Shown piece by piece: positions 6,836 through 62,467 of a stretch of 64,000 nt of DNA. Under the pieces are notes generated by a model. It had not been told where the DNA came from and searched no databases. It saw only the letters and a list, made by a program, of their open reading frames with translations. The stretch is from an uncultured Verrucomicrobiota bacterium (GTDB lineage: Bacteria; Verrucomicrobiota; Verrucomicrobiia; Verrucomicrobiales; Verrucomicrobiaceae): positions 224-64,223 of the forward strand of contig CAILZI010000111.1 of assembly GCA_903838675.1 (NCBI GenBank). The letters are read 5' to 3'. A program made the position numbers and the translations under genes. The stretch's first letter is position 1. Each line of letters starts with the position of its first letter.

Positions 6836-6871
6836 TCAATCCGCACTCTTGGGCGGATTTGCTTCGTGATT
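6836..6871 (-). other. Orphan diverged copy of the last 11 codons plus stop of the cbiX-like gene
   Basis: Reads NHEANPPKSAD* versus NHEANAAKSAV* at 7423-7458; 26/36 nt identical, 5 differences synonymous. Confidence 0.7.
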
Positions 6872-6947
6872 CCGAACAATGCAAGGCATACTGGGGCAGA
6901 GCCTCAAGGGGCTGGTAAAAATGACTTAGATGAGGTATGAATGACTC

Positions 6948-7376
6948 GTGGACGACGACCTGGTGTTTTCAGAAAACGAAAGACCGCGCTACCTGCTGCC
7001 GGAAGGCTGCAAGGACCTTTATGACGTGATTCGGATGCAAGAGCGGGATGCCGCCATTGAAAAGGAGAGGGCTGCCATCCGTTCCAGTGCTCTTGAAAAA
7101 TATGCCAGCAAGGAAATGGAAGATCCCATGAGCACTTTGGCGCAGCTTGCGGAAGCCTTTGAAAAGCACCTCGGTGCGCCCGCCAAGGAATTGCCTCAAT
7201 GTATCGCGATTCCAATACCCGTGACCGTTGGTGAGCTGGCTGGCCTGCTTTTTATGCAGCCTTTCAAGATCATTTCTTTGCTGATTAAGCTCAAAATCTT
7301 TGCCAGCAAAGATTCAGAGATCAGCTACGAAACCGCTTCCAAAATTTGCGCTTTCTTTGGAGTGGCGGTGAAATAG
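6948..7376 (+). CDS. Small protein with a C-terminal IF2 N-terminal (IF2_N-like) domain
   Basis: IPIPVTVGELAGLLFMQPFKIISLLIKLKIFASKDSEISYETASKICAFFG matches the IF2_N pattern (xTVxELAxxL...IIxxLxxL...IxxETAxxIxxxFG); visibly AT-richer than its flanks. Confidence 0.7.
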   Translation: MDDDLVFSENERPRYLLPEGCKDLYDVIRMQERDAAIEKERAAIRSSALEKYASKEMEDPMSTLAQLAEAFEKHLGAPAKELPQCIAIPIPVTVGELAGLLFMQPFKIISLLIKLKIFASKDSEISYETASKICAFFGVAVK

Positions 7377-7422
7377 CCATGCGAATCCTTAAACTGACTG
7401 CTTCAGAGATAGGTCATTCTTT

Positions 7423-8898
7423 TCAAACAGCACTCTTCGCAGCATTCGCCTCATGGTTCTCCCGAGCCAACTTGCGTGCCGCAGAGACGACGTGGGTGCA
7501 GGCCTCAATGCAGAGCAGGGGCATGGCGTTGAGGGCGTGATTGGGCTGCGTTTTGGCAGCGGCCGCTCCGGCCATGGGCTGGGTGGGGGTGAGGGGCCAG
7601 AGGATGCGGCGGAGGCATTTGGTATTGGCGCAGGTTTTGCCGATCAGTGCGTGGGCCTGATCATCGGTGATGGTGTTGACGAAGCGATACATGCCGGTCT
7701 GGCGGCCGAGGAGGTCGCGCAGGGGGACGGCGGCGAGCTTTTCCTGCCCCAGTGCACGAGCCAGGCCGATGGCGGCGGGGTAGAAGAAATCGAGCGCGAG
7801 GCGCAGTTCGTCGAGATCGGCGAGATCGAGACGCCAGCCGCGATTTAGGGTGGGCGCGGAATGCAGGGGGCGGAAGGTGCCGCTGGCATCGTTTCGCGCG
7901 ATGAAGAGGGCATCGTGCGCTTCATGGTGGACCTGGAGATCCTCTTGGCCGCGATCGGCGATATGGCAGAGCGAATAGGTGCCATCGTCATTGGTGGCGA
8001 TGAGGATCTCTCCGATCTCATCGAGGCCTGAGTTCAACCAGTAGGCTAGGGAGGATTTCACCTCGTCGTTCGGCATGCCTTTTTTGTCCTTCACCTGATG
8101 CTTGGCATCGAAGTCGTGCACCTGATCGAGGATGACGTCTGCCATGAGAGGCTCGGTGCCGATGGCACCGCTGTAGTAGATCTGACGGCCTTGGAGCTGA
8201 TGCGGGTTTTGATGAAAGACGCCGATCTCGCTGAGCGCGGCACCGACTTCTTCGCGCATGCCGAGGAGGACGGGGATGTCCTGAAAGCTATGGAGGCCAT
8301 CGGCAATGAAGAAGGGGACGACGACGACATTCGGAGCTGTGGTGAGTTTGGCCCATTCAGCGACGAGGGGGGCTTCCTCCATGTAGGCGTCGATGACTTC
8401 GGCGAAGCCGTAGTGGCCGCTGCGAATGAGGACTACTTGATCCTGGATGGCCTTGGTGGAGTTCTCGTTCAGACTGGTGCCGTGGCCGACGATGACGAGG
8501 CTGGTCTGCTCGCGTGGCACATGGGGTGCGACTTCATCGGCACGCTGGATGAGGAGGCGCGTCATGTTGGGGTGGACGCCCACGGGATCGCAGTAGTGGA
8601 TCGTTTTGCCATCGCGGTGCGTGGTGGGGCCGTCGAGCTGGAGTTCACGCGGGAGCACCTGCTGGCAGAAGTAGCCTTCGCTGATGAAATTCGGGACGAT
8701 GTAGATGACCTCGCTGTCCACCATCTCGTACACTTCGCGCATGTTGGGCTCCTCTTTCCAGAAGCAGCAGACGACCTCGCGGAAGAGGCCGCGGCGGCGG
8801 ATGGAGTCGGCGTGCAGGTGAGTCGGGGCGCTGGAGTCCGGATTCGTGGTGGAACCGTGACCGACGATGATGAGGGCTGCGTGGGAGTAAGAGCTCAA
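7423..8898 (-). CDS. Tandem CbiX/SirB chelatase domains fused to a DR2241-like, Cys-containing C-terminal region
   Basis: Two chelatase repeats (LIIVGHGS...CCFWKEEP; LVIVGHGT...AYMEEAP...VVPFFIADGLHS), then LGRQTGMYR...CANTKCLRRILW...LCIEAC. TTG start. Confidence 0.8.
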   Translation of the reverse strand: MSSYSHAALIIVGHGSTTNPDSSAPTHLHADSIRRRGLFREVVCCFWKEEPNMREVYEMVDSEVIYIVPNFISEGYFCQQVLPRELQLDGPTTHRDGKTIHYCDPVGVHPNMTRLLIQRADEVAPHVPREQTSLVIVGHGTSLNENSTKAIQDQVVLIRSGHYGFAEVIDAYMEEAPLVAEWAKLTTAPNVVVVPFFIADGLHSFQDIPVLLGMREEVGAALSEIGVFHQNPHQLQGRQIYYSGAIGTEPLMADVILDQVHDFDAKHQVKDKKGMPNDEVKSSLAYWLNSGLDEIGEILIATNDDGTYSLCHIADRGQEDLQVHHEAHDALFIARNDASGTFRPLHSAPTLNRGWRLDLADLDELRLALDFFYPAAIGLARALGQEKLAAVPLRDLLGRQTGMYRFVNTITDDQAHALIGKTCANTKCLRRILWPLTPTQPMAGAAAAKTQPNHALNAMPLLCIEACTHVVSAARKLARENHEANAAKSAV

Positions 8899-9527: not shown

Positions 9528-9628
9528 GGGCGCATCCTAGACGGCAATTGGCGGGTGCTAAATCGCAATTTTCAAATCTCGCATTCCGCCGGGTCACCGC
9601 TAAAGATGCCCTCCCCCGACCACCCGCC

Positions 9629-10756
9629 ATGTCCGCCGCCCCTCTTCCCACCGACCACACTGACCCGATCAACGCGCAAATCCTCGCCGTGAGCGAAGAC
9701 CGCATCAAAGGCTTCACCCCCACACCGTTTCAGGACATCGCGCAGTTGTCCGGCCTGCCGCTGGAGACGGTGGTGGAGCGCATCCAGGCGATGCTGAAGG
9801 CCGGGGTGATCCGCCGCGTGCGGCAAACCCTGCTGGCCAACAAGCTGGCTGAAGGCGCGCTGGTGGCCTGGAAAGTGCCCACGGAAAAGCTCGATGCCGC
9901 CTTTGAATTCCTCTTCAAGCAGGACCCCTTCAGCGGGCATGTGGTGCTGCGCTCCACAGACCGCGAAGTGAGCGGCAGTGACTACCGCCTGTGGACTACG
10001 CTGAAAGTGCCGCAGGGGTATGATATCAACCAGCATTGCGATGTGCTGGCGAAGCTGATCGGTGCGGAAAGCTACTACACCATGGAAGCGCATGGCATTT
10101 TCGCCCTGGGCGTGGGCCATGTGCGCCGCAAGACGCTGGAGCCCGGCGATAGAGCCGATGTGCCTGCTGTGATGATGACCACCAACATCGCCGAGCTGGA
10201 TGAAGAAGAGTGGAACGTGCTGCTGCATCTCAAGGGAGATCTGAGCGTGGACGAAGTTGGCCCAAATCCATGGGAAGGCCGCGCCAAGGCTGCGGGTGTC
10301 TCGTTTGAGAAATTCTGTGAAGTCGCCAAACAGCTCGACAAAAAAGGCGTCATTGGCCGCTTCTCCACTTTCTTGGAGCACGTGAAGCCCAGCTCCACGG
10401 GCGTGCGCGTGACGCGCTTCAATGCTCTGTTCCACTGGAAGGTGCCCAAAGGCATGGAAGAACGGGCAGGCGGCGAAGTGGGCCGCCACACCATCATGAC
10501 CCACGCCTACTGGCGTGAAGGCGGTGAGCGCTTTGCCAACGTGAACATCATGGGTGTCATCCACGGCACCGACAAAGAGATGGTGCTGGCTCACAAGGCC
10601 GCCATCGACAAGCATCTGGCCGAAGAAGGCATCCCGCTGGAATACACGAATGTGTTCTGGGGCGGCCGCAGCGAAATCAAGCCCAGCGAGATCTCACCGA
10701 TCGTGTTCAAGGAATGGCACGCGAAGTGGAAGGATGTGGCGGGGCCGGTGGTGTGA
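9629..10756 (+). CDS. Fused AhbA-AhbB / NirDL-type siroheme decarboxylase (Lrp/AsnC-like fold, two repeats)
   Basis: Two HTH+Lrp units (PFQDIAQLSGL...AGVIRRV; PWEGRAKAAGVS...KGVIGRF), each followed by a GALVAWKVP / NALFHWKVP segment and an HxxxR motif (GHVVLR, THAYWR). Start moved to ATG 9629. Confidence 0.78.
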   Translation: MSAAPLPTDHTDPINAQILAVSEDRIKGFTPTPFQDIAQLSGLPLETVVERIQAMLKAGVIRRVRQTLLANKLAEGALVAWKVPTEKLDAAFEFLFKQDPFSGHVVLRSTDREVSGSDYRLWTTLKVPQGYDINQHCDVLAKLIGAESYYTMEAHGIFALGVGHVRRKTLEPGDRADVPAVMMTTNIAELDEEEWNVLLHLKGDLSVDEVGPNPWEGRAKAAGVSFEKFCEVAKQLDKKGVIGRFSTFLEHVKPSSTGVRVTRFNALFHWKVPKGMEERAGGEVGRHTIMTHAYWREGGERFANVNIMGVIHGTDKEMVLAHKAAIDKHLAEEGIPLEYTNVFWGGRSEIKPSEISPIVFKEWHAKWKDVAGPVV

Positions 10757-10790
10757 GGAGAATCGATACTGATCGAGTCATGATGCCAGT

Positions 10791-10818
10791 GTGGAACGAA
10801 CTTGAAGGTTCGCTCCAC
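10791..10818. repeat. REP-like hairpin, possibly a bidirectional terminator
   Basis: gtggaacgaac-ttgaag-gttcgctccac: 11-bp arms with one mismatch, between convergent genes. Confidence 0.55.
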
Positions 10819-10858
10819 TGCGGCGTCCTGATGCTGCTTCAGGCAATCTTTCTATGCC

Positions 10859-11446
10859 TCAATCCACAGCATAGACGATGCAAGCAAAGCTGAATGTGGC
10901 ATCCGTCTGCAACTCGCAGCGGCCGGTGCTGTTTTTCATGTCGGTGCGCTCAAACGTAATGATGCCGTGAAAATCAGGCAAAGCGTCAAGCCCCGGAAAG
11001 TCGGTTGTGGTGAAATAGAGATGATCTGGCTGGTAGTCGCTGCGGGTGAAGGGCGGACGCGCAAGAATGGCGCGCAGGCTTGCGGGATCGCAGCGGAAGT
11101 AGGCTTTCACCACATAGTCGGTCCACGCGTCTTCCTGGATGTGCAGATCATGGATTCCGGCAGGTATGTTTCCTGCAAATGCGACTCTGAGCGCCTGGGT
11201 GTCTCTTCCGCCGGTGATGAACAGACTGCCTGCGAGGATGAGAGCTGGCAGCAGCATGGCGCTGCGACGCAACCACACCGGGGAGCGAAAGCGGCGGAAA
11301 ACCCAGCGCACGCACCACTGGCCCAAAAGGACCAACGGCAAGATGATGATGAGGTGGAAGCCGCCCACAAAAGCGTCCCTTGTGGACGCTGCTAACAGGA
11401 CGAACAGCAGCAGGGTGGCCCAAAAGACTGGAAAACGGGGAGGCAA
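10859..11446 (-). CDS. Hypothetical membrane-anchored protein
   Basis: 195-aa ORF with three hydrophobic N-terminal segments and a soluble C-terminal domain; TTG start; no family recognised. Confidence 0.6.
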   Translation of the reverse strand: MPPRFPVFWATLLLFVLLAASTRDAFVGGFHLIIILPLVLLGQWCVRWVFRRFRSPVWLRRSAMLLPALILAGSLFITGGRDTQALRVAFAGNIPAGIHDLHIQEDAWTDYVVKAYFRCDPASLRAILARPPFTRSDYQPDHLYFTTTDFPGLDALPDFHGIITFERTDMKNSTGRCELQTDATFSFACIVYAVD

Positions 11447-11521
11447 GGGACTCGATTAGAGGTTGAGTCGCAGGGTATTTCAAACCGGTTGGTGATGTCC
11501 AACTCTTTAACGTCTCTTGTT

Positions 11522-11573
11522 TTCAAGGAATGGCACGCGAGGTGGAAGGATAAGGTGGGCCGGTGGTGTGAGG
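11522..11573 (+). other. Orphan diverged copy of the 3' end of the ahbAB-like gene
   Basis: 48/53 positions match 10706-10758 (FKEWHA(K/R)WKD...gtgtgagg), with one gap. Confidence 0.85.
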
Positions 11574-16972: not shown

Positions 16973-17257
16973 TCAGCGGTCTCGTCTTGCGAACACCCCC
17001 CAAAGAATGGCAATGCCTGAAAGCGCGGAAAAGGCACCCGCCACCCGCGCTCCGGTTTTCGACACATGTTCAAACTTAGCGTCGGTTCTCGGGGAACCCG
17101 GGCGTGACACAGCCATCTCGGTGGGGTGAATGACCAAGGCTGTGCCAGAGATCAGCAGGAAAGCGCCCAGCAGAACAAGGCCCAGTTCGAATCCAGAGGG
17201 GCGGCGCATGAGGCAAGGTTCCGGTGGTTGATGATGTAGGTCATTCATGCCTGACAT
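16973..17257 (-). CDS. Small two-TM hypothetical protein; start uncertain
   Basis: Two hydrophobic helices (LGLVLLGAFLLISGTALVI; VAGAFSALSGIAILWGVF). Confidence 0.5.
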   Translation of the reverse strand: MSGMNDLHHQPPEPCLMRRPSGFELGLVLLGAFLLISGTALVIHPTEMAVSRPGSPRTDAKFEHVSKTGARVAGAFSALSGIAILWGVFARRDR

Positions 17258-17929
17258 CTATAATTTTTTAATTGCCGCTCCTGTTCTGTTGGAGACTATG
17301 ATTTTGTTCCAAAGGGAGGTGGCGACGCCAGTCCACACATATTTGCATTGCTTCGATCCATGGCTTCGCTTTATGTTTTCGACAGTGAGCGGCGTTGATT
17401 GATACACGGCACGGGCTTCTAACTCACGCTCTTCGCCTGCCTTCATGGGAAATGGTAGAGTCCACTCGCTCAAAAAATCCACATTGACCAGAAGGTCATC
17501 TCCTGGCGCGAGTGTCATCACTTTAGGAAACCCCATGCTGCAGGTGTAACCGCGGCTAGTGTGTGCCTGAAAGACCTTGTCTCGCGCACGTGGATACCGA
17601 AACTCTATTGCCATTGCAGAATCTCCTTGTGGACAATAGGGGGCCCATAAGGTCAATGCTTTCTTCGTGGTGTTCGAGATTTTCAAATGGATTATCGTAT
17701 GTGGAGCGAAGAGAATGAGGTTTAACAGCCCATCACGAGTTGAGCGGGCGGACCGACCGCTCGAGTCGTAAATTGTCACTGCGACATCGCTGCTACCCTT
17801 CTCGTGCGAGGCCAACGTTAAATGAGAATGGCCTTTCGAGGCGCATGAAGACAAAGTGCTCATGGTTGCAATTGCCAGCACCTTGATGATCAACTGCTTC
17901 GTTAGCTTAATGCAAAGTCTAGCGCGCAT
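17258..17929 (-). CDS. Hypothetical exported protein, probable lipoprotein
   Basis: IIKVLAIATMSTLSSC lipobox-like segment; AT-rich relative to the window; start moved to ATG 17929. Confidence 0.55.
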   Translation of the reverse strand: MRARLCIKLTKQLIIKVLAIATMSTLSSCASKGHSHLTLASHEKGSSDVAVTIYDSSGRSARSTRDGLLNLILFAPHTIIHLKISNTTKKALTLWAPYCPQGDSAMAIEFRYPRARDKVFQAHTSRGYTCSMGFPKVMTLAPGDDLLVNVDFLSEWTLPFPMKAGEERELEARAVYQSTPLTVENIKRSHGSKQCKYVWTGVATSLWNKIIVSNRTGAAIKKL

Positions 17930-18023
17930 GGGAATAGTTTTACACGACAGTGGTCTATTCAGGCAACTCATATGTGAGTCTGGACCTAGTGGGTGCTGAA
18001 GGCTGTATGTCATTGCCTGACAC

Positions 18024-18056
18024 AAAAACGCCCTCTCCCGAACGGAAGAGGGCGTT
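18024..18056 (-). terminator. Intrinsic terminator of the isomerase gene
   Basis: aacgccctct...agagggcgtt stem with an A5 run on the plus strand (U-tract on the minus strand), 39 bp past the stop. Confidence 0.8.
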
Positions 18057-18094
18057 GAATCTCAAGAGTGTTTTGTTCTCTGCGATGCAGCTAC

Positions 18095-18958
18095 TTACGC
18101 CACGATCGGATGCAGATTGGCTTTGCACCACTCGCCATTCTGCTTGGTCACGCCATCGGGGTCATCGACGGCGACATGGGCTTCGTCTTCGCAGATGATC
18201 CAGCCGGAGTAGTTGCGGGAGACGAGCCATTCGGTGATCTTGTGGAAGTCGAGCTTGCCGGTGCCCATTTGCGCCCAAGGCTCGGCGCCGTTGCCGGAGA
18301 AGTCTTTGTAATGGATGTGGTTCACCAGGTGCTGCCACTTGTTGAGGGTGGCGATGACGTCCATGCCGCCGCGGATGATGTGGCCCACGTCGGGAGTCCA
18401 GCCGGTGACTTTGGGGTCGAGGCTGCTGAGGACGACGTCGTAGTCTTCCTGGGTGCGGACGAGGGAGGCGGGCGGGGAGTTCGGGTGGTAGGAGGCCTTG
18501 ATGCCGAGATCAGCGGCGCGCTGGGAAACGCGGTTGACGTTCTTGGCGATGTTGAGGCGGCGGCTCTGGAGGTTGTCTTTGCGGCCGCTTGGCAGCGTCA
18601 CCGTGCCGAGCATGGAGCCGGGGAAGTGCTTGAGGAAGTTGAGGGTGAAGTCAGCGGCTTCCTTTTCATTGGGCGCTTCGGTTTCACCATCCCAGGCGCA
18701 GACGAGAGCGAGGCCAGCGAGCTGCACGTTGTACTTCTGCAGCACGTCCTTGAGCTTGATGGGGTCGATGAAGTCACCGAGCCAGTACTTGGAGCAGCCG
18801 AGGGCGCTCTGGGAGATTTCCAGCACCATGGGTTCGATGCCGGTGAAGCCTGCTTCGCCTGCGACCTTGATCATGTGGTCGAGCTTGTTGTCGTAGCCTT
18901 TGCCGGTGCCCTGCATGAACCAGGTGTAGACTTCGGAACCGAATTGGATTTTGCCCAT
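18095..18958 (-). CDS. Sugar phosphate isomerase/epimerase (IolE / xylose-isomerase-like TIM barrel)
   Basis: AGFTGIE, SYHPNS, PDVGHI, HIHYKD, MGTGKLDF, WIICEDE metal-binding motifs. Confidence 0.85.
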   Translation of the reverse strand: MGKIQFGSEVYTWFMQGTGKGYDNKLDHMIKVAGEAGFTGIEPMVLEISQSALGCSKYWLGDFIDPIKLKDVLQKYNVQLAGLALVCAWDGETEAPNEKEAADFTLNFLKHFPGSMLGTVTLPSGRKDNLQSRRLNIAKNVNRVSQRAADLGIKASYHPNSPPASLVRTQEDYDVVLSSLDPKVTGWTPDVGHIIRGGMDVIATLNKWQHLVNHIHYKDFSGNGAEPWAQMGTGKLDFHKITEWLVSRNYSGWIICEDEAHVAVDDPDGVTKQNGEWCKANLHPIVA

Positions 18959-19087
18959 GGTGTGAGTGTGGTGGTGGATTGCTTTGGAGAAATCACGACG
19001 GCCAGTGCGGCCGGTGGAGCGGCATTGGAGCGAACGAGCGTGAACTGTAAAGCGGCAAAATGCTGTGGGAGCCTACTGATCAGATCA

Positions 19088-19158
19088 ACACCGCAGAGAT
19101 GGGAACGCCGAAGAGTTCTTCTGAAACCACCTCTGCGGCGTTCCTCACTCTGCGGTGT
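19088..19158. repeat. Long imperfect inverted repeat (REP-like)
   Basis: acaccgcagag...ggaacgccgaagag paired with ctctgcggcgttcc...ctctgcggtgt. Confidence 0.8.
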
Positions 19159-19181
19159 AAATCTCAATGTTTTCTAGAGTA

Positions 19182-20598: not shown

Positions 20599-22095
20599 AT
20601 GATTCGGAATCTATTGTTCGACTGGTCCGGCACGCTGGTGGATGACCTGCCAGGCGTGGTGTTTGCCGTGAACGGCATGCTGCGCGCCGCTGGAGTGGCG
20701 GAAATGACGCGGGAGGAATTCAAGACGCGGTTTCGCCTGCCCTACACCGAGTTTTTTGCGGAGGTGCTGCCGGGCCTGCCGCTGGAGCGCCTGCAGCAGC
20801 TTTATCTGGAGCACTTCACACATGCACATGCAGACATCCGCCTGCTGCCCCACGCGCTGGAGTGCCTCAAGCACGCCGCCGCCACGGGGCGCCGACTCGT
20901 GGTGCTGAGCAGTGCGCCGCTGCCGCATGTGGCGGCCCAGGCGGAGGCTCTGGGGGTGCGGGATCTGTTTGAAGTCATGCGCTGCGGAGTCATCGACAAA
21001 CGCACCGAAATCCACGGGCTGCTGGCGGAGCTGGACATGGCCGCCGCAGAGACTGCCTTCATCGGCGACATGCGGCATGACATTGATGCGGGCCATGCCG
21101 CCGGGGTGGTGACCATCGCCACGTGTACCGGCTACGAAAGCGCCGAGACGCTCATGACATCTGCGCCAGACATGCTGGTGCCCGATCTCTCGCGTCTGCC
21201 TGCCTGGCTGGGGCCTCTGGGCGGGAGTGATGGGGCCTACCCGGTGTCCACCGTGGGGGCGCTCATTTTGAACTCAAAAGGTGAGATGCTGCTCATCCGG
21301 ACGCACAAGTGGAGCCACCGCTGGGGCATCCCCGGGGGGAAGATCAAACGCGGCGAAACCTGCGAGGAGGCGCTCATTCGCGAGATCCAGGAGGAAACTG
21401 CGCTCACGCTGCAGGGCATCGAATTCGTCATGGTGCAGGACTGCATTGAGCCGGTGGAGTTTCAGCGGTCCGCTCACTTTCTGCTGCTGAACTACATCGC
21501 ACGCTGTGCCGATGACGCACCGCCGGTGGTGCTGAATGAGGAGGCGCAGGCCTTTCAATGGCTGCCGCTGGCCGAGGCCCTGCAGATGGATCTGAACATC
21601 CCCACGCGAGTTCTGCTGGACGAATGCATGAGGCAGGGGCTGCTGGGCGAAAAGCCGAATGAAGCTCCAGCACCGCAAGCCCTGGCCGGGACTTCCGCAT
21701 TGTCAGATCCCCATCCCCGGCTAAAACCACCACCCCACATGCTTCCTCCTGACGAAATACGTATTTCCGCCCTGCGCCTGACCACGCACATCGGTGTTCC
21801 TGAGGAGGAGCGGGCCGGGAGCCAGGTGCTGGAGGCGGACGTCACCCTGCGCATTCGCCGGCGTTTTGAGGCGATGGACGATGACCTTGCGGCGACGATC
21901 GACTACGCCGCAGTCGCCGCGCGGCTGCAGGCACTGGCGGCGGAGCGGCCCCGGCGGCTGATCGAAACCCTCGCAGCCGAGATGGCGGCGTGTGTGCTGG
22001 AGGAATTTCAAGCCATTGGTGTGACCCTGGAATTGCGCAAACGCATCCTGCCGGACACGGATCATGTGGCGGTGCGTCTTGTGCGTGGAGACTGA
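20599..22095 (+). CDS. folB: Three-domain fusion: HAD phosphatase, Nudix hydrolase, dihydroneopterin aldolase (FolB)
   Basis: HAD motifs FDWSGT / LSS / DK / IGDMRHD; Nudix box GGKIKRGETCEEALIREIQEET; FolB HIGVPEEER...DDDLAATIDYA...LIETLA...LELRK. No stop codon in 498 codons. Confidence 0.88.
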   Translation: MIRNLLFDWSGTLVDDLPGVVFAVNGMLRAAGVAEMTREEFKTRFRLPYTEFFAEVLPGLPLERLQQLYLEHFTHAHADIRLLPHALECLKHAAATGRRLVVLSSAPLPHVAAQAEALGVRDLFEVMRCGVIDKRTEIHGLLAELDMAAAETAFIGDMRHDIDAGHAAGVVTIATCTGYESAETLMTSAPDMLVPDLSRLPAWLGPLGGSDGAYPVSTVGALILNSKGEMLLIRTHKWSHRWGIPGGKIKRGETCEEALIREIQEETALTLQGIEFVMVQDCIEPVEFQRSAHFLLLNYIARCADDAPPVVLNEEAQAFQWLPLAEALQMDLNIPTRVLLDECMRQGLLGEKPNEAPAPQALAGTSALSDPHPRLKPPPHMLPPDEIRISALRLTTHIGVPEEERAGSQVLEADVTLRIRRRFEAMDDDLAATIDYAAVAARLQALAAERPRRLIETLAAEMAACVLEEFQAIGVTLELRKRILPDTDHVAVRLVRGD

Positions 22096-22192
22096 ACGGA
22101 ATGGCAGGTGCGGCGTCCAAAGACCCCAGTCTTGCCGGTCAGAGCCAGCCCGCCTGGTGCACGTCCACACAAGAAAACCATTCTACCAAACC

Positions 22193-22399
22193 ATGAAATC
22201 TTTGCACCTTATCGTGGCCGCATTGCTTGCCTCCACTCTTCTCATCTCCTGCGGCACCCATGCCGATTCGCGGCAACCCACAGTGTCCCAGCAGGATGCC
22301 TATGATTTGAGCTGGGGACTGACACCGCGCAAAGCGCGTGGCAATCCGAAGATGCGCTATCAGTACAATTCCAGAGCCGAGCAGGCCTCCGCGCCCTGA
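22193..22399 (+). CDS. Small lipoprotein, paralog 1 (68 aa, apparently truncated by a 1-nt deletion)
   Basis: MKSLHLIVAALLASTLLISC lipobox; shares RGNPKMRYQYNSRAEQ with the next gene. Confidence 0.7.
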   Translation: MKSLHLIVAALLASTLLISCGTHADSRQPTVSQQDAYDLSWGLTPRKARGNPKMRYQYNSRAEQASAP

Positions 22400-22423
22400 G
22401 TTTCGGCCCCGCAGCACCTGCCT

Positions 22424-22453
22424 GTGGCCAGGCGTGGTGAGCCTGGAGACTGA
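22424..22453 (+). other. Orphan diverged copy of the folB 3' end
   Basis: gtggccaggcgtggtgagcctggagactga versus 22066-22095: 23/30 nt, V-A-x-R-x-x-x-G-D-stop; downstream intergenic sequence is also duplicated (offset 358). Confidence 0.7.
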
Positions 22454-22550
22454 ACGAAAAGGCTGGCGCAGCGTCCAAGACTTCGATCTTGCCAGCCAGT
22501 GCCAGCCCGCCTAGTATCGTGGCTCGTTAAGAATTCAATTTTGCCAAACA

Positions 22551-22865
22551 ATGACATCTCTGCGCTACCTTTTTGCCGCTCTGCTTGCCTCCACTCTTCT
22601 CGTTTCCTGCGGTTCCTTTGAGCATGTTGACTCACGTCATCCCACAGTGGCCCAGCAGGATGTTTTCGATGTGAGCTGGGGCCTGCCCCCACGTAAATCT
22701 CGTGGCAACCCGAAGATGCGCTATCAGTACAACTCCAGAGCTGAGCAGTCCGCCGCTCCTATGAGTCTCGAGCCTGCGGCACGTACCGCTCCCGTGCTGG
22801 CACCCACACCTGCGCCGAGCCAAGCCGCCCCGAGCAGCCCAACGATCCCGCCCAATCTGCGCTAA
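22551..22865 (+). CDS. Small lipoprotein, paralog 2 (104 aa, Pro/Ala-rich tail)
   Basis: LLASTLLVSC lipobox; conserved SWGLxPRKxRGNPKMRYQYNSRAEQ core. Confidence 0.75.
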   Translation: MTSLRYLFAALLASTLLVSCGSFEHVDSRHPTVAQQDVFDVSWGLPPRKSRGNPKMRYQYNSRAEQSAAPMSLEPAARTAPVLAPTPAPSQAAPSSPTIPPNLR

Positions 22866-30435: not shown

Positions 30436-30576
30436 TGCGCGATCACGGCAAGTGGTGGTCGATTTATGAAGATGAATTCACGCTGGGTTCACGGGAAATT
30501 CATACGAAGGACTGCCGCAACCTCCTCTTTTAAGGTTTGTCTTGATTTAGGTGTGCTTATTACAATCTTGCTCAAA

Positions 30577-31074
30577 ATGAGTCGTCTCTGCCGAAGCTGC
30601 CTATTCGTTGCAATCCTTACGCTTGCTACATTGACTGTGGCTGAGGATGAAAAGACACCGTTGCAATCCAAGATCACTCAAAAAGGAAACAATCGTACGA
30701 CTGTTTGGTCTCGGGGCAAAGAACGTGTAATGCTTAGTCTTGAGTCATCTACAAAAGGAGACGGAGTTTACGACCGACTCATTGAAGCTTTCTATTTGAA
30801 CGGTAATCAAGTATTCACCTGCTCGCATTTTAAACCATCGCCACCAGGAAGGATGTACTTGTCAAATCGGGGCATGGAAGGGCCTTTCATTTTCAGTGGC
30901 AGCATAGGAATCAACTTTCCGGAAGAAGTCTTATTCATTGGGAATCCGTTCGTGGAGCAATTTGAATGTTTTGCTTTTGAAAACGGACGGCATCGGCCAA
31001 TGACATTACCAGAGCGAGAGCAGCTCAAGAAAAGAATGTCTGAGTTTTTTCCAAATCAGCCTGCGGAGAAATAA
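30577..31074 (+). CDS. Hypothetical exported protein (AT-rich)
   Basis: 3' part of the 401-aa track ORF; signal-like MSRLCRSCLFVAILTLATLTVA; codon usage unlike neighbours. Confidence 0.6.
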   Translation: MSRLCRSCLFVAILTLATLTVAEDEKTPLQSKITQKGNNRTTVWSRGKERVMLSLESSTKGDGVYDRLIEAFYLNGNQVFTCSHFKPSPPGRMYLSNRGMEGPFIFSGSIGINFPEEVLFIGNPFVEQFECFAFENGRHRPMTLPEREQLKKRMSEFFPNQPAEK

Positions 31075-39004: not shown

Positions 39005-40419
39005 CAGGCGATGATGTCTTTGAGTACATTACCATGTACGTCTGTGAGGCGCAGGTCTCGTCCGCTAAAGCGGTAGGTGAGCTGTTCGTGATCGATTCCC
39101 ATGAGATGCAGCACGGTGGCCCACATGTCATAGACGCTGGAGATGTTTTCGACAGCGTTGTAGCCGAAATCATCCGTGGCACCGTGAACGTGGCCGCCTT
39201 TGACGCCGCCGCCAGCCATCCAAACGGTGAAGCCGTAAGGATTGTGGTCGCGACCATTCGAACCCTGAGCAAAGGGCGTGCGGCCAAACTCACCGGCCCA
39301 GACGAGAAGCGTGCTGTCGAGCAGACCGCGTGCGCGCAGGTCCTTGATGAGAGCGGCGATGGGCTGATCGATCTGATTGGCCATCTTGCCGTGGCCTTCC
39401 TTGATCGCACCGTGGTGGTCCCAGGGATTGGCTCCGTTTCCTCCGCCGATGTTGTAGGCAAGCGTGCTGAGCTCGATGAAGCGCACGCCGCGTTCGACGA
39501 GTCGGCGCGCGAGCAGGCACTGGCGCGCGTAGGCGGCTTTCTTCGGCTCGGGATCATCGAGGCCGTAGAGTTTTTTGGTCGCTTCGGTTTCGCCGGAGAT
39601 GTCGCAGAGATCGGGCACGGCGGACTGCATGCGCCAGGCCATCTCGTAGTTTGAGATGGCAGCCTCCACGTGCATGTCATGCTGCGTGGTGCTGACGAAG
39701 CGGCGGTTCATCGCGCCGATGAAATCGAGCTGTTTGCGCTGCGTGTCCTGCGGCTGACGTGGACGGATGTTGACGACCGCCTCCGCTTCATCGGCTTTCA
39801 CAATGCTGGCCTGATGCTGCGCAGGCAGGAAGCCGTTGCTGAACAAGCCCACGCCGCCATGCGGGGTGGATGCCCCTCCACTTTGCAGCACGAGGTAGCC
39901 GGGCAGATCGCGCGACTCGGTGCCAAGCCCATAGCTCGTCCACGCACCCGCGCTGGGGAAGCCGAGGAAGGGGAAGCCGGTGTGCATGAAGAAATTGCCC
40001 TGCGCATGCTCGCTGAATTTGGCCGTCATGCTGCGGATCATGCACATCTCATCCACCACCCCGCCGATCTGTGGAAACAGATCGCTCACCTCCAGGCCCG
40101 ACTGACCGTAGCGTTTGTAGTCCCAGTGCGAGGGCTGCACGGTGCCGTTGTTGTTGAACTGCGTCTTCTTCACCGCACCCGGCATCGGCTGGCCCGCAAA
40201 TTTCTTGAGCAGTGGTTTGTGATCGAAGGAATCGACATGCGACACACCGCCGCTCATGTAGAGAAAGATCACGCTGCGTGCTTTGGGCGCGAATTTCTTC
40301 GCGCGATGCACGAGCGGCATGTCTGCGAGCGCCTGCTCTTGCATAAGCCCTGCAAGTGCGGCCAGGCCGAAGCCAGTGGAGGCGTGGGAAAGGAGCTGGC
40401 GGCGATTGATCGTATTCAT
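39004..40419 (-). CDS. DUF1501 family protein, copy 1 (Tat signal)
   Basis: Same motifs as copy 2; TGATG overlap with it. Confidence 0.92.
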
Positions 40420-47646: not shown

Positions 47647-47680
47647 TGTTTTAAACCTCGCCACCTTTCTTTAAATTGCC

Positions 47681-48277
47681 ATGGGACGCACCTCCACTGC
47701 CAAAGATCGTCTGATTGATGCCATGATCGAACTGATCTGGGCGGGCAGCTATGGCAGCACCTCGGTGGATCATATTTGCGACAGGGCAGGGGTGAAGAAA
47801 GGCAGCTTTTACCACTTCTTTGAGTCCAAAACTGAGCTGGCCCTCACCGCCATCGAACATAGCTGGATAGAGCACCGCAAGGAGCTGGACCAGATCTTTT
47901 CCCCTGTGGTACCCCCGGTGGAGCGCATCCTGAACTGCTTCCGCAATTTCCGGCAGGAGCAGGAGGAACTCTTTAAAAAGCATGGCCGGGTGCTGGGCTG
48001 CCCGATCCATTCCCTGGGGGCGGAGGTCAGCACGGTGGACGAGCGCCTGCGCGACAAACTGCAGGAGATCCTGAGCCAGTTCATCCGCTACTACGAGAGC
48101 GCCATCCGCGATGCCCAGGCACAGGGCAGCATTGTCACACATGATGCTATGGCCCTGGCACGCATCGTGTTTGCCTACAGCGAGGGGCTGCTGCTCCACG
48201 CCCGCATGTGGAATGACCTCGGCCGGCTGGATGAATTTGAGTCCGGCGCCAAGATCATCTTGGGCGTCAAAGGCTGA
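47681..48277 (+). CDS. TetR/AcrR-family regulator (NemR/ComR-like)
   Basis: SVDHICDRAGVKKGSFYHFFESK HTH; GCPIHSLGAEVS. Confidence 0.92.
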   Translation: MGRTSTAKDRLIDAMIELIWAGSYGSTSVDHICDRAGVKKGSFYHFFESKTELALTAIEHSWIEHRKELDQIFSPVVPPVERILNCFRNFRQEQEELFKKHGRVLGCPIHSLGAEVSTVDERLRDKLQEILSQFIRYYESAIRDAQAQGSIVTHDAMALARIVFAYSEGLLLHARMWNDLGRLDEFESGAKIILGVKG

Positions 48278-48301
48278 TCCTGTGCCCATTTTTTGCTTTC
48301 A

Positions 48302-58405: not shown

Positions 58406-59367
58406 AGGACGTGGGTGGGGATGTCGGTGGGTGTGCCCGCGTTCATGGAAAGTTCGACGAAGACATCCTCCAGGGTGGGGAGCTGGCGGTGCATCTCGCG
58501 GATGCGCCATTTTTGCTGCGTGGCGAGTTCCATCACTTCATCACGTACGTCGTGGTCGGGCTCGACCCGCAGGGTGAAGCGCCGCCAGGGATGAACGAGC
58601 AGCTCCTCTTCGGTGGCCTTGCGCACGGCGGTGATGGCGGAGAATTTTTCCGCCAGATTGCCGCTGCCTTCGATTTCCAAATGCAGCAGCGTGGTGGAGC
58701 GCAGCTGCCGTGTCAGGTTCGCCGGCGTGTCATTGGCACGGATGCGTCCATTGTGGATCATGATCACGCGATCGCAGGACTGCTCAACTTCATGCAGGAT
58801 GTGCGTGGAAAGCAGCACGGTGTGCTTGGACTTCAGATTGCGCAGCAGGTCGCGCACATGGCGGATTTGCACGGGGTCGAGGCCGTTGGTGGGCTCGTCG
58901 AGGATGAGCAGCTTCGGTTTGTGCACCAGGGCATCTGCCAGCGCCACACGCTGGCGGTAGCCTTTGGAGAGATTGCCGATGAGGCGCTTGCGCATGTCGG
59001 TGACGCCGGTGAGTTCCATCACTTCGCCGATGCGGCGGCGCATGGCCGTGCCGGAGAGGCCTTTCAGCTCGGCCCGGAAGTGCAGGTACTCTTTGACCCG
59101 CATGTCGGTGTAGAGCGGGGCGTTTTCCGGCATGTAGCCCACGGACTGGCGCACCTGGATGGACTGGTGGAAGACATCAAATCCCGCCACAACGGCCCGC
59201 CCCGAGGTGGCCGGCATGTAGCCGCTGAGGATGCGCATCGTGGTGGATTTCCCCGCCCCATTCGGGCCCAGAAAGCCCACGATCTCCCCCGGTTCCACCT
59301 GGAAGGAGATGTTGTTCACCGCAGTGCGTCCGGCATACTGCTTGGTGAGGTCCTGAACATCAATCAT
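58402..59367 (-). CDS. GldA-like ABC ATP-binding protein
   Basis: GPNGAGKST, LSKGYRQR, LILDEPTNGLDP, LSTH. Confidence 0.93.
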   Translation of the reverse strand: MIDVQDLTKQYAGRTAVNNISFQVEPGEIVGFLGPNGAGKSTTMRILSGYMPATSGRAVVAGFDVFHQSIQVRQSVGYMPENAPLYTDMRVKEYLHFRAELKGLSGTAMRRRIGEVMELTGVTDMRKRLIGNLSKGYRQRVALADALVHKPKLLILDEPTNGLDPVQIRHVRDLLRNLKSKHTVLLSTHILHEVEQSCDRVIMIHNGRIRANDTPANLTRQLRSTTLLHLEIEGSGNLAEKFSAITAVRKATEEELLVHPWRRFTLRVEPDHDVRDEVMELATQQKWRIREMHRQLPTLEDVFVELSMNAGTPTDIPTHVL

Positions 59368-59496
59368 GACTGGGAGGGAGAGGGAAAGGGAGTGCTGGGT
59401 TGGAAATGGTAAATTTAAGCCTATGCGCGCCTGAATGACAATTCGCAATGAGGCATTCGCAAAAATGAATGGGCGGAGGGGCGAGGCAGGCGAGAA

Positions 59497-59560
59497 ATCA
59501 TCCTGATCCCTCCACGCTCAGCCGCACCCACCGCTTCCAAACGGGGATCAAGATGATCCC
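59497..59560. repeat. REP-like inverted repeat
   Basis: atcatcctgatccc (59497-59510) pairs with gggatcaagatgat (59544-59557), one mismatch; the right arm is itself palindromic. Confidence 0.7.
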
Positions 59561-59579
59561 CCTCCTCCTGGCCAGTCCC

Positions 59580-59672
59580 CTGCTTGCCCGCCTGGCGGGT
59601 GCCGGTGCCTTTGGGCATCTTCATGAGGCTGTCTCCCAGTTCGGCGCGGATGGTGGTGGCGTGCTTTTGCAG
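59580..59672 (-). other. Orphan diverged copy of the sulfatase 3' end
   Basis: 83/93 nt identical to 61040-61132 (offset 1460); LQKHATTIRAELGDSLMKMPKGTGTRQAGK versus LQKHAATIRTELGDSLMRMPKGSGTREAGK; TAG changed to CAG. Confidence 0.9.
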
Positions 59673-59697
59673 GCTGCTTGAAGACGATGTGGGTCGA

Positions 59698-60915
59698 TCA
59701 TTTCTTAAGCTCGGCTTCAATCGCGGCAATCGCCGCCTCAGCGCGCTGACGAATTTCTGGAACCGGATCCGTTGCTTTCATGTGAATGAGCGAAGGGAGA
59801 ACGTGTTGTTGGAACAAAGTACGCATCTCCGCAAAATCCGAAGGTGAACAGGGGTTGGCAAGGCCGCTTTTGGGATTCGTTCGCGCCGCCACTTCACATT
59901 GATGGATCGCGGCCTCCCGCAAGAACGCATCGCCGTTTTGTAGAAATCCTTCAATCACTGCCAGCCCATCACGTTTAAACTCAAAGAGGGGAATGTTCTG
60001 TGGATGGAGTCCGCTCTTCTGGCAGTTGGAAAACACTTGTGTTAACAAGGGCAGGGCGTACTCGTAACGTGCCGATCCAAGCTGTGAAAGTGAGCCTTCA
60101 AGCTTGTTTTTGTCTTCATAGCTAAGCATGTTGAAACCTCGATAATTCGTCTGTACGAAGCTCATGCTTAGCAGGCACTGCGCATCGCGCACGTGTTCGC
60201 CCCCGCCGACATACCTCAAAACTTCAGTCCTCTCGGGCCTTCTGCGTTCGGCGGCTTCTATTCCAAGATACTCCTCGGGTGTGGTCAGCCAGGCAAGTGC
60301 TTCGAAAGCCCAACCCAAGCGCTGCCTGTTAGTAGCGGTTTTGATGTAGGTGAGCAGGGGTTTTTTCAATACATAAGGTTGCAACGCCTTGGCTCCTGCA
60401 TCGCTTGGACTAGCCGCAACCATTGCTCTGTAGGGGTTGCCCTCGATTTCGATGGCTTGTACCGCTTCGGCCTGGGCAACGAGCCGATAGGCAAACGAGG
60501 TGAGCGGGTCCAAGGAGGGGGCATTGGTAAAAGAGGCCGTGTTCGACCAGCCATCGCAATGAACAGAGATGGAAGTTAAACCTCCGTCCATACCAGCCTG
60601 GGTTTCAGCCATGCGAGCCTCTCTAAAGCCTGTTGCCACGATGGTTTCCAGCAGCGCGCTTATCTCATACTCCGACAGCTTCGTCTCGTAAGCAGGAATG
60701 GCGGGCTTGTTTTCAGACCCGTACTTTGAAAGACTCACTTTAACTTCACCGGTGGGGCTGATCTCCACCTCAAGGTGTTGGTAGGCGGAGAGTGATCCTC
60801 CGTGCCGTAATTGGAACAAGGGGGGCTGCGCTGCGGCGGGCCAGACACCAGCAAACATGAGGCAAACGGACAGGGTCAGGGCATTCAAGCGAAACAGGGC
60901 GAAGATTGCACACAT
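59698..60915 (-). CDS. Hypothetical exported protein (AT-richer, HEAT-like C-terminus)
   Basis: Signal-like N-terminus ending WPAAA; C-terminal DPVPEIRQRAEAAI; no family recognised; start uncertain. Confidence 0.65.
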   Translation of the reverse strand: MCAIFALFRLNALTLSVCLMFAGVWPAAAQPPLFQLRHGGSLSAYQHLEVEISPTGEVKVSLSKYGSENKPAIPAYETKLSEYEISALLETIVATGFREARMAETQAGMDGGLTSISVHCDGWSNTASFTNAPSLDPLTSFAYRLVAQAEAVQAIEIEGNPYRAMVAASPSDAGAKALQPYVLKKPLLTYIKTATNRQRLGWAFEALAWLTTPEEYLGIEAAERRRPERTEVLRYVGGGEHVRDAQCLLSMSFVQTNYRGFNMLSYEDKNKLEGSLSQLGSARYEYALPLLTQVFSNCQKSGLHPQNIPLFEFKRDGLAVIEGFLQNGDAFLREAAIHQCEVAARTNPKSGLANPCSPSDFAEMRTLFQQHVLPSLIHMKATDPVPEIRQRAEAAIAAIEAELKK

Positions 60916-61039
60916 GGTTTCATCTATGCAGCTCAGCAGAATGGGAGTCAATCCAGCCCAGTGGTTCGGAAATGTTCTAAAAATGCCTTGTGCTCTTGCC
61001 CTACGGAGTGCGTGACAGTCCTGATTTCTCTAAATTCTG

Positions 61040-62467
61040 CTACTTCCCCGCCTCGCGCGTGCCACTCCCTTTGGGCATCCTCATGAGGCTGTCTCCCAGT
61101 TCGGTGCGGATGGTGGCGGCGTGCTTTTGCAGCAGGGCCACCTCGTCCGGGTTTTGGGCTGCCACGTTTTTGGACTCGCTGAGGTCGCCGTAGAGGTCGT
61201 AGAGCTCCGGCTCGGTGATCTTGACCGGGTTGTAATTGACCGGTTTGCCGCCGGTGGCTTTGGGGATGTCCGTGGGCAGGCTGCGGTAGGTGTGGGGGAG
61301 CTGGAGCTTCCAGCGGCCGTCTCCGCTGGTGATGGCCTGGAGCTGGTTTTGCTCGTAGTAGAAGGCGTAGAAATCGTGCGGGTTTCTGGCGTCGGGCACG
61401 CCTGAGACGATGGGCCAGCAGTTGAGGCCGTCGATGGGGTGATCGGGCAGTTTCGCCTCAAGGACGTGGGCGATGGTGGGCAAGAGATCGATGGTCATCA
61501 TCATCGTGTCCGTGGTGGTGCCCGCGGGGATTTTGCCGGGCCATTTCATGATGCCCGTCACCCGTGTGCCACCCTCCCAGCAGGTGCCTTTGCCTTCGCG
61601 CAGGGGGCCTGCACTACCGGCGTGTTCGCCATAGCTGAGCCAGGGGCCGTTGTCGGAGGTGAAGATGATCCAGGTGTTGTCTTCGAGGCCGTTTTTCTTC
61701 AGCGTGTCCACGATCTGGCCCACGGACCAGTCCACCTCCATCATGACGTCTGCAAACAGGCCTTTGCCGGATTTGCCTTTGAACTTGTCGCTCACAAACA
61801 GAGGCACATGCACCATGCTGTGCGCCAGGTAGAGGAAGAAGGGTTTATCTTTGTTCTTTTCGATGAACTGCACGCCGCGGGTGGTGTAGTCGGAGGTGAG
61901 GTGGGTTTGATCCTCAGGCGTTACATTTTCATCCACGACATGGTCGTTTTCGATCATCGGCAGACTGGGGTAGGCACCCTTTTTGGCCTGCGGATGGAAG
62001 GGCCACATGTCGTTGGAGTAGGGGATGCCGTAGTACTGGTCGAAGCCGTGCTTGGTGGGCAGGAACTGGGGCAGGGAACCGAGGTGCCATTTGCCCACGG
62101 CGGCGGTGGCGTAGCCTTTTTGTTTCACCAGCTCGGCCAGGGTCAGTTCATTGGCGCTGATGCCGTGCTTGGCATTGGGGCCCAGGGCACCGTGGATGCC
62201 AAGGCGGTTGGGGTAGCAGCCGGTGAGCAGGGCGGTGCGGGAGGCGCTGCACACGGGCTGGGCGACGTGGAAATTGGTGAATTTGCGGCCATCGGCGGCC
62301 AGTTTGTCGATGTTGGGGGTCTGATAGCCCTGCGCACCAAAGCAACCGACATCGGCATAACCCATGTCATCCATGAAAATAATGACGATGTTGGGGGCTG
62401 GAGCGGCCGAAAAGGATGCCCCTGAGGAGAGAATCAGGGCAAGGAATGATGAAAGCAGGAGGCGCAT
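61040..62467 (-). CDS. Sulfatase (formylglycine-dependent, Cys-type)
   Basis: PNIVIIFMDD, VCSASRTALLTG (CxxxR), VGKWHLG, FTSDNGP, WEGGTRV, PELYDL. Start moved to ATG 62467. Confidence 0.95.
   Translation of the reverse strand: MRLLLSSFLALILSSGASFSAAPAPNIVIIFMDDMGYADVGCFGAQGYQTPNIDKLAADGRKFTNFHVAQPVCSASRTALLTGCYPNRLGIHGALGPNAKHGISANELTLAELVKQKGYATAAVGKWHLGSLPQFLPTKHGFDQYYGIPYSNDMWPFHPQAKKGAYPSLPMIENDHVVDENVTPEDQTHLTSDYTTRGVQFIEKNKDKPFFLYLAHSMVHVPLFVSDKFKGKSGKGLFADVMMEVDWSVGQIVDTLKKNGLEDNTWIIFTSDNGPWLSYGEHAGSAGPLREGKGTCWEGGTRVTGIMKWPGKIPAGTTTDTMMMTIDLLPTIAHVLEAKLPDHPIDGLNCWPIVSGVPDARNPHDFYAFYYEQNQLQAITSGDGRWKLQLPHTYRSLPTDIPKATGGKPVNYNPVKITEPELYDLYGDLSESKNVAAQNPDEVALLQKHAATIRTELGDSLMRMPKGSGTREAGK

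Follow-up and report, generated by a model that had tools for sequence, protein, structure and literature searches.

Displaced 3' ends of metabolic genes as probable footprints of homology-anchored gene insertion in Verrucomicrobiaceae

Most hotspots of bacterial gene gain carry no recognisable mobile-element genes, and the entry of the first gene copy is rarely visible. Here we analyse a 64,000-nucleotide stretch of contig CAILZI010000111.1 from an uncultured member of the Verrucomicrobiaceae (assembly GCA_903838675.1), referred to below as the window. Accessory genes lie directly behind three of its ordinary metabolic genes, which encode a CbiX-like chelatase (cbiX), an AhbAB-like siroheme decarboxylase (ahbAB) and a sulfatase, and each accessory gene is followed by a second, displaced copy of the 3' end of its host gene, which we call the orphan. 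It appears rather probable that these three sites (cbiX-DUF1015, ahbAB-GNAT and sulfatase-ABC) are scars of the homology-anchored insertion of a relative's DNA, followed by spread and loss through homologous recombination.

Among the closest described processes is homology-facilitated illegitimate recombination (HFIR), or one-sided integration, reportedly documented by de Vries and Wackernagel in 2002 and by Prudhomme and colleagues in the same year. When Escherichia coli was given DNA with homology on one side only, most recombinants arose by a single crossover of a re-circularised, partly degraded molecule (PMC3240628), and in these the homologous segment was duplicated over 109-950 bp, with one copy on each side of the insert (Amarir-Bouhram et al. 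2011, PMC3240628). The window and its relatives show the same topology of an insert flanked by a duplication, with one homologous anchor and no recombinase, and their homology is likewise one-sided, ending where the repeat ends. However, the E. coli recombinants were laboratory events with engineered substrates, whereas the insertions described here are natural, fixed and present in multiple species, with shorter repeats (29-146 nt) and an anchor that is always the 3' end of a conserved gene. The 'C-terminal displacement' of Rhs genes is said to go back to Jackson and colleagues in 2009. An HFIR-like mechanism has been proposed for the orphan arrays of effector-immunity modules in type VI secretion systems (T6SS) (Kirchberger et al. 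2017, PMC5361080). In the arrays of Rhs, CDI (contact-dependent growth inhibition) and T6SS loci, as in our case, a new 3' end is inserted together with a downstream gene, the old end is shifted downstream and insertions stack; an array in one relative (L013) has this same architecture. Those loci code for polymorphic toxins along with the cognate immunity genes, and their orphans are kept by selection, whereas the hosts here are CbiX, AhbAB-like, cobA/hemD and sulfatase genes, the cargo is unrelated to them, and working and orphan ends encode nearly identical C-termini.

Integrative elements that carry a replacement 3' end for their target gene, such as e14 and phage 21 in icd, ICESt1/3 and cis-mobilizable elements (CIMEs) in fda and the islands in tRNA genes, provide a further precedent. 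They too produce direct repeats of a gene 3' end, a restored gene and a displaced pseudo-fragment, but they need an integrase and a fixed core site, whereas no integrase was found here and the boundaries vary. Finally, the 'minimal mobile elements' of Neisseria and other hotspots free of mobile genetic elements hold variable content between conserved flanking genes (PMC3787668, PMC1797815). They resemble the present sites in lacking mobility genes and in exchanging content by homologous recombination in the flanks, but they account for the exchange of content, not for the formation of the first insertion. To our knowledge, they have not been described with a duplicated 3' end of the flanking gene. 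The process favoured here varies a mechanism already known (HFIR, Rhs C-terminal displacement), now seen at ordinary metabolic genes, and is not a new kind of element.

Displaced gene ends in the window and empty sites in relatives

Repeat pairs inside the window were detected by self-blastn. They were set against a null in which the last 39 nt of 121 open reading frame (ORF) ends were each compared with their own 2 kb downstream, where the bulk of the best matches reached 19-25 of 39 positions. A scan with the CbiX-like protein led to 80 genomic loci (at most 96% amino acid identity), nearly all labelled Prosthecobacter, Brevifollis or Verrucomicrobiaceae, and the source of the window is Prosthecobacter-like; the loci of relatives are labelled L001, L002 and so on, and the window and 167 fetched loci together comprise 2.1 Mb. 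An earlier reading of the window, made from the sequence only, had listed four repeat pairs, at genes it called cbiX-like, ahbAB, folB and sulfatase, as four cases of one insertion signature. Each pair is present at the coordinates it gave, and Pfam confirms the gene names, but the signature holds for cbiX, ahbAB and sulfatase only, the folB pair being a tandem duplication (see below).

At the sulfatase-ABC site the end of the gene recurs behind the cargo gene (self-blastn E=2e-28; features in Table 1), and this pair, like the ahbAB pair, is far above chance. The 405-aa cargo has a lower GC content at third codon positions (GC3) than its neighbours (0.58 vs 0.79), and its homologs (64-81% amino acid identity) invariably stand directly after a sulfatase ortholog. 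In three relatives (L088, L089 and L090) the site is empty, with the order NusA-sulfatase-ABC and nothing intervening. An alignment shows the window orphan, the hairpin that follows it and the upstream region of the ABC transporter gene to be colinear with the 3' end of the L088 sulfatase gene and its downstream DNA. At the 10 sites that differ between the two window copies, the relatives side with the orphan seven times and with the working copy three times; the three orphan-specific changes include the loss of the stop codon, now CAG in place of TAG. A tree of the 93-nt sulfatase ends gave no resolution, the alleles being mosaic and too short. The junction between cargo and orphan is also present in L170 and L172. 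The region recurs at 100% identity in two other assemblies (L081 and L082), and a 2220-nt unitig from a lake-water run covers positions 59539-61758, comprising orphan, cargo and working end, with zero differences. Since independent assemblies and the unitig agree, the structure is not an assembly artefact.

Further observations concern the same site. The sulfatase genes of L172 and L088 are 95% identical at the nucleotide level, and L172 has cargo and orphan whereas L088 is empty, a presence/absence pattern compatible with precise loss by recombination between the repeat copies. In L170 and L171 (6350-7280) a PIN-domain toxin-antitoxin pair sits exactly after the stop of the sulfatase orphan and before the native terminator region, and the orphan end seems to act as an insertion point just like the end of the working gene. 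The window has a single copy of the hairpin GGGGATCATCTTGATCCCC, and another species has one exact copy downstream of ahbAB (L009, 8221-8239); the hairpin may be a dispersed element similar to repetitive extragenic palindromes (REP) or a terminator. The template and variable repeats of a diversity-generating retroelement (DGR) were also considered at the sulfatase and rejected, as the 10 differences involve all four bases and are not adenine-specific, and the Pfam scan detected no reverse transcriptase domain.

The two copies at the ahbAB-GNAT site are 89% identical over 56 columns with one 1-nt gap (self-blastn E=1e-12). The orphan has decayed by about 5 substitutions and a 1-nt deletion that shifts the frame, and about 40 nt separate it from the convergent GNAT gene's stop. 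The site is empty in L003, where the intact ahbAB stop is about 50 nt from the convergent GNAT stop, in the same relative position as the window orphan, and is followed by DNA homologous to that after the orphan. Another relative (L008) carries an 82% identical (amino acid) homolog of the 195-aa cargo with the same cargo-orphan junction as the window. Relatives with empty sites thus show that the orphan is the resident gene end, which has kept its native DNA downstream.

The cbiX pair matches at 26 of 36 positions (27 of 39 when extended) and is not significant in the window self-blastn. It ranks fourth of the 121 ORF ends, with only the sulfatase pair and a region of tandem DUF1501 paralogs above it; by itself it is borderline, and it is made convincing only by the relatives. 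In 12 of these, the cbiX stop lies 29-31 nt before the ATG of the DUF1015 gene, and most end in ..NQPKSAD* (AAT CAG CCC AAG AGT GCG GAT TGA caa). The window orphan reads ..AAT CCG CCC AAG AGT GCG GAT TGA caa.., with its stop 30 nt from the DUF1015 ATG, and agrees with the end of the empty alleles, ..CCCAAGAGTGCGGATTGA. Varied DNA of 95-1477 bp fills the same gap in 17 other relatives, so that the cbiX-DUF1015 site is an insertion hotspot. Homologs of the 142-aa cargo with just 42-55% amino acid identity occupy it in L002, L003, L004, L011 and L013; the genes that flank them are 88-99% identical, and DUF1015, where present in those loci, 96-99%. The window cargo has a GC3 of 0.59, and its Pfam match to IF2_N scores 24.3 bits, under the cutoff of 25.3.

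The TGA stop of the cbiX orphan falls inside an invariant TTGACA. In an alignment of 30 loci, TTGACAA, a TA.TC motif and the spacing between them are invariant whether the site is empty or occupied, and this conservation points to a probable DUF1015 promoter. A consensus promoter scan does not call it; its -10 box is TATCCC. As any insertion must keep this probable promoter, the insertion had to fall inside the coding end of cbiX, and preservation of the promoter would explain why the old orphan is still recognisable. The orphan also contains an inverted repeat, AATCCGC-N8-GCGGATT. Its stem is perfect (7/7) in the window orphan and in those of L003 and L004, the latter with one compensatory change, and reaches 5-6/7 in the orphans of L011 and L013. 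The repeat might act as an operator where DUF1015 and the 142-aa cargo ORF diverge. For the cbiX pair only, these overlaps with a conserved promoter and an inverted repeat, along with the 27/39 match and the non-significant blastn result, could be taken as a sign of chance similarity or of a conserved regulatory motif. However, such a reading is barely credible, since the relatives with an empty site show the orphan to be the ancestral cbiX end in its ancestral position, and selection on promoter and hairpin accounts for the persistence of the orphan, not for its origin. The sequence-only reading had expected empty alleles in relatives to end like the orphan, not like the working copy, and this is what is seen at cbiX, ahbAB and sulfatase. 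Its core proposal, that homology-anchored capture brings in a new 3' end with downstream DNA and displaces the resident end, survives the comparison with empty sites.

A palindromic element resembling a miniature inverted-repeat transposable element (MITE; AAGTTGTCCAGTTGCGCCGCAACTGG...) directly follows the cbiX stop in L001, L004, L006, L008, L010, L011, L012 and L057; the window lacks it, and L001 and L010 have inverted copies of it at both ends of the insert. REP or MITE sequences were rejected as the cause of the window repeats: GGGGATCATCTTGATCCCC is single in the window, the palindrome CCAGTTGCGCCGCAACTGG found after cbiX in relatives is absent from it, and neither explains the repeats.

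Recurrence, breakpoints and a possible route of insertion

A self-comparison of the window and the 167 loci for direct repeats 150-4000 bp apart, rerun after more loci had been fetched, returned 77 pairs. In about 13 of them the upstream copy ends between -6 and +8 nt from the stop of a long ORF and the other copy is intergenic and downstream; the mirror classes account for about 2 of the 77, and no convincing 5'-end analogue was found among these pairs. After collapsing shared ancestry, at least seven independent events at five genes remain (sulfatase, ahbAB twice, cobA/hemD twice, a gene of 871 aa and cbiX; Table 1). The inserts measure 0.5-2 kb and have repeats of 29-146 nt on both sides. 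In every event the repeat terminates on its right at the stop codon (-6 to +8 nt), with no similarity past the stop; in a young event (L011), whose copies are 98.7% identical, similarity ends abruptly after GGTGGT. On the left, the repeat begins sharply at a point that depends on the cargo. This left edge lies about 53 vs about 80 nt before the stop in the two ahbAB events and 97 vs 75 nt in the two cobA/hemD events, the events at each gene differing in cargo as well as in left edge, and it is identical across species that share a cargo, although the cargo proteins are just 77-82% identical. Cargo occurs in either orientation, with GC3 values of 0.58-0.69 vs 0.76-0.84 in neighbours, and its types are varied (a toxin-antitoxin pair, an HNH nuclease, a short-chain dehydrogenase/reductase (SDR), regulators and ORFans). 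In L013, both cobA/hemD cassettes stand in series in a stacked array, gene-cargo1-orphan1-cargo2-orphan2, in which orphan1 and its downstream DNA match the working end of L006 and the start of cargo2. The sequence-only reading took the window to record repeated capture, each time of one downstream gene. The sulfatase, ahbAB and cbiX insertions are not fresh events in this genome but old and common to other species with identical junctions, and cargo consists of a single gene in some events and of more than one in others.

No integrase, transposase or other recombinase domain was found in the window or in the cargo segments scanned for protein families; for the window this agrees with the earlier claim that none is nearby, the Pfam scans of essentially all its ORFs above about 130 aa being negative. 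It is conceivable that a tyrosine or serine recombinase acts in trans, or that the inserts are remnants of larger integrative elements, in which case the repeats would represent attL and attR, with the replacement 3' end carried by the element. The topology would be the same, with the gene restored and the old 3' end displaced, and the stacked L013 array resembles tandem accretion. However, beyond the lack of a recombinase gene in the window or the scanned cargo ORFs, independent events at one gene differ in their repeat boundaries and leave no fixed crossover core, at least five unrelated genes are targeted, the inserts measure just 0.5-2 kb, and many insertions at the same sites have no repeats, which together make a recombinase quite unlikely. 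The likeness to tRNA-targeted islands drawn by the sequence-only reading holds for the topology only; the boundaries, which vary between events at the same gene, argue against site-specific recombination.

The edges of the orphans also bear on the idea that a full second copy of the host gene once followed the cargo and was deleted down to a 3' remnant. The window does contain tandem paralogs (the DUF1501 pair, 37601-40419), and sulfatases are multi-copy in this phylum. Yet orphan left edges that are identical in species with cargo proteins of 77-82% identity speak against progressive trimming, and the repeat pairs include 3' remnants only, no 5' or internal ones. In addition, behind the orphan comes the same native DNA that lies downstream of the gene where it is single-copy, and cbiX, ahbAB and cobA/hemD are each detected once per relative locus, except for the ahbAB 3'-end orphan of L011. 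A decayed paralog is thus very improbable indeed.

Some relatives have a donor-like arrangement in which the gene is followed by cargo and no orphan: in L168, a sulfatase ortholog precedes a 411-aa homolog of the cargo in a different neighbourhood, and in L057, ahbAB precedes a 129-aa ORF. L011 and L057 are 80-93% identical along the body of ahbAB; 3 nt ahead of the repeat start their identity rises to 97-100%, and it stays there past the stop and for about 440 nt of cargo. L013 and L001 are 94-98% identical in the body of cobA/hemD but only 78-86% once the repeat begins. In both comparisons the breakpoint is within 3-11 nt of where the repeat begins, while the window's own three sites are too old and gene-converted to show one. 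Sequences downstream of the orthologs differ between species, and unrelated DNA can follow the orphan of the same cassette with the same junction, as in the window vs L008 (identity 0.86 in the orphan and 0.38 just beyond) and in L001 vs L013. The L011 orphan follows the working copy up to its last 6 nt and there turns into GTCTAA and downstream DNA resembling L012, an apparent switch of the pattern expected of a crossover inside the orphan. Every boundary falls where homology between genomes starts or stops, which points to the host's homologous recombination, with conserved coding sequence as the anchor.

Anatomy, recurrence, breakpoints, the lack of recombinases and the orphan's ancestral status are shown by the sequences; how the founding event came about, and its reliance on RecA, are inferred. 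In the homology-anchored insertion that we favour, the donor would be DNA of a relative with the same conserved gene but different downstream DNA, so that homology would comprise the conserved coding sequence alone. The likeliest route would be a single Campbell-type crossover of a re-circularised fragment, which would duplicate the homologous stretch; one-ended strand invasion followed by end joining would be equivalent and would also duplicate it, and classical HFIR is a further candidate. The joint at the other end would be illegitimate or would be the one that closes the circle, and the founding event would presumably depend on RecA. The upstream copy would complete the gene, the cargo would come next, and the resident 3' end would be pushed downstream along with its native terminator and the promoter of the next gene. 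The repeat would end at the stop because the homology between donor and recipient ends there, and its left edge would be arbitrary and cargo-specific because the incoming fragment ended there. Later, the cassette, being homologous to the gene end on both sides, could be inherited, lost, stacked and moved by ordinary homologous recombination, and the two copies could undergo gene conversion while the orphan decays. Since the host genes serve ordinary metabolism, have no relation to their cargo and receive a C-terminus almost equal to the one they lose, the scars are probably by-products and not selected diversity; the cbiX orphan, with its probable promoter and its inverted repeat, is an exception.

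Several points weigh against this scenario. Recombination over only 36-150 nt of imperfect homology is inefficient, and the 7:3 polarity at the sulfatase is based on just 10 sites. A sliding identity comparison with eight orthologs gave no clean breakpoint in the window's sulfatase gene, and no clear donor tract is visible upstream of its repeat. Many insertions at the same sites have no orphan, so that duplication is not obligatory. Furthermore, both copies share lineage-specific variants (GATGAA in L008, type A in L001, CTG in L172 and TAC in L011), which indicates that the copies exchange sequence by gene conversion and that their divergence is not a clock. The picture of a donor copy upstream and a resident copy downstream is not preserved, and either gene conversion or duplication of the resident end has to be invoked. 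Orphans also decay: that of L172 has acquired stops and indels, the window ahbAB orphan a frameshift, and the window sulfatase orphan has lost its stop. Given such decay and gene conversion, the earlier argument that many synonymous differences mark both copies as former coding alleles is weak.

Duplication of the resident end could have occurred in situ, if template switching or the repair of a staggered break had inserted foreign DNA and recopied the last 30-150 nt of the resident gene. The copies would then be initially identical and resident-derived, like a very long target-site duplication. The variants common to both copies in L008, L001, L011 and L172 and the 98.7% identity of the L011 copies fit this idea, as do hairpins just past several stop codons, which could stall replication forks. 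However, random duplication would not be expected to place the right edge at the stop in all events, even in the young ones of L011 and L008. The same cargo and junction occur in different downstream contexts, the near-identical tract of L011 and L057 spans the repeat plus 440 nt of cargo, and the window sulfatase orphan is closer to the consensus of the relatives than the working copy is. We regard in-situ duplication as rather unlikely on this evidence.

That the footprint of recombinase-free, homology-anchored gene insertion is real and recurrent is comparatively well supported. It suggests that the one-sided-homology mechanism known from the laboratory, and proposed for toxin loci, also works at metabolic genes of a free-living verrucomicrobial genus. 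Displaced 3' ends would be natural footprints of the first step of gene entry, marking the anchor gene, the polarity (new DNA beside the gene, the old end farther off) and the sequence in which events followed one another. The signature, a repeat ending at a stop with a second copy 0.2-3 kb downstream, can be searched for genome-wide, which would make recombinase-free gene gain measurable. Perhaps, and we propose this only tentatively, the orphan is more than a scar and makes the insertion a recombinase-free, 'self-addressed' cassette, with cargo flanked by conserved gene ends. If so, homologous recombination could place the cassette in any genome that has the host gene, whatever its downstream DNA, and could likewise cut it out precisely or stack it. 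Such cassettes would offer toxin-antitoxin pairs, HNH nucleases and ORFans a general route through hotspots without mobile-element genes, and orphans would be datable footprints of the founding illegitimate events.

The HNH cassette (L013, 15974-16393; L001, 9090-9509) encodes an HNH endonuclease of 139 aa, which weakly matches IscB/Cas9d models in their HNH region. By cutting empty alleles, this nuclease could promote the spread of its own cassette in a homing-like manner; it is the only cargo type with such a gene.

Table 1. Features of the insertion sites and the folB region in the window, and insertion events across window and relatives
Feature	Position	Strand	Evidence or occurrence
Sulfatase gene, 475 aa	61040-62467	-	Pfam Sulfatase E=3e-59; identical to P0001
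Working repeat copy (last 93 nt of sulfatase)	61040-61132	-	self-blastn pair
Spacer, 124 nt, arrived with 405-aa cargo gene	60916-61039
Cargo gene, 405-aa ORFan with signal peptide	59698-60915	-	no match in Pfam or NCBIfam
Orphan (displaced resident sulfatase 3' end)	59580-59672	-	83/93 vs working copy
Native sulfatase downstream region	59365-59579	-	alignment with L088, L089, L090; motif search; promoter scan
Hairpin GGGGATCATCTTGATCCCC in native sulfatase downstream region	59543-59561
Conserved ABC-transporter promoter region, TTGTCA-18-TAAATT	59441-59412	-	promoter scan
ahbAB-like siroheme decarboxylase gene	9548-10756	+	Pfam AsnC_trans_reg2, NirdL-like_HTH
Working ahbAB repeat copy	10703-10758	+
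Cargo gene, 195-aa membrane ORF, convergent with ahbAB	10859-11446	-	no family match (Pfam, NCBIfam)
Whole ahbAB-site insert	10759-11518
Orphan ahbAB 3' end	11519-11573	+
CbiX-like chelatase gene	7423-8898	-	Pfam CbiX, DR2241, Fer4_23
Working end of cbiX repeat	7423-7461	-
Cargo gene, 142-aa ORF, convergent with cbiX	6948-7376	+	weak IF2_N-like match
Orphan cbiX 3' end	6836-6874	-	27/39 vs working end; empty-allele match
Probable leaderless DUF1015 promoter (TTGACA, 17 nt, TATCCC, 5 nt, ATG)	6803-6842	-	overlaps ancestral cbiX stop
HAD-NUDIX-FolB fusion, 498 aa	20599-22095	+	Pfam
Tandem duplication of 358-bp unit	22065-22782 (copies 22065-22417, 22423-22782)	+
Event 1: sulfatase			window, L170/171, L172
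Event 2: ahbAB + membrane ORF			window, L008
Event 3: ahbAB + SDR and 129-aa ORF			L011
Event 4: cobA/hemD + HNH and 73-aa ORF			L001, L013
Event 5: cobA/hemD + DUF417 and AraC			L006, L013
Event 6: 871-aa gene + PIN toxin-antitoxin pair			L076
Event 7: cbiX + IF2_N-like ORF

Other duplications and accessory genes in the window

The folB pair is no more than the first 30 nt of a longer duplication, whose unit consists of the last ~30 nt of folB, intergenic DNA and a whole small lipoprotein gene. Its two copies are homologous throughout (75% identity over 364 columns, self-blastn E=2e-61), and the two-copy arrangement is also found in L173, L175 and L176. Since homology covers the full length of both units and relatives have both copies, this is an old tandem duplication, not a cargo insertion. 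NCBIfam gave no family for the cargo proteins or for the two lipoprotein paralogs.

The cobA/hemD site (stop at 432), which is occupied in some relatives, is empty in the window. ORFs with low GC3 (0.51-0.59 vs about 0.75) and no Pfam match at 16973-19177, 29869-31074 and 47651-48289 may be further accessory insertions without a recognisable orphan. The tandem DUF1501 paralogs (37601-39004 and 39004-40419, minus strand; 467 and 471 aa) share about 77% nucleotide identity over 1.38 kb and adjoin a 1371-aa PSCyt/PSD1 (DUF1549/DUF1553) gene; they are an ordinary tandem gene duplication, which dominates the repeat statistics of the window. The HAD-NUDIX-FolB fusion occurs in only about 6 database clusters among those listed, and most Prosthecobacter homologs are 350-aa HAD-NUDIX proteins without FolB.

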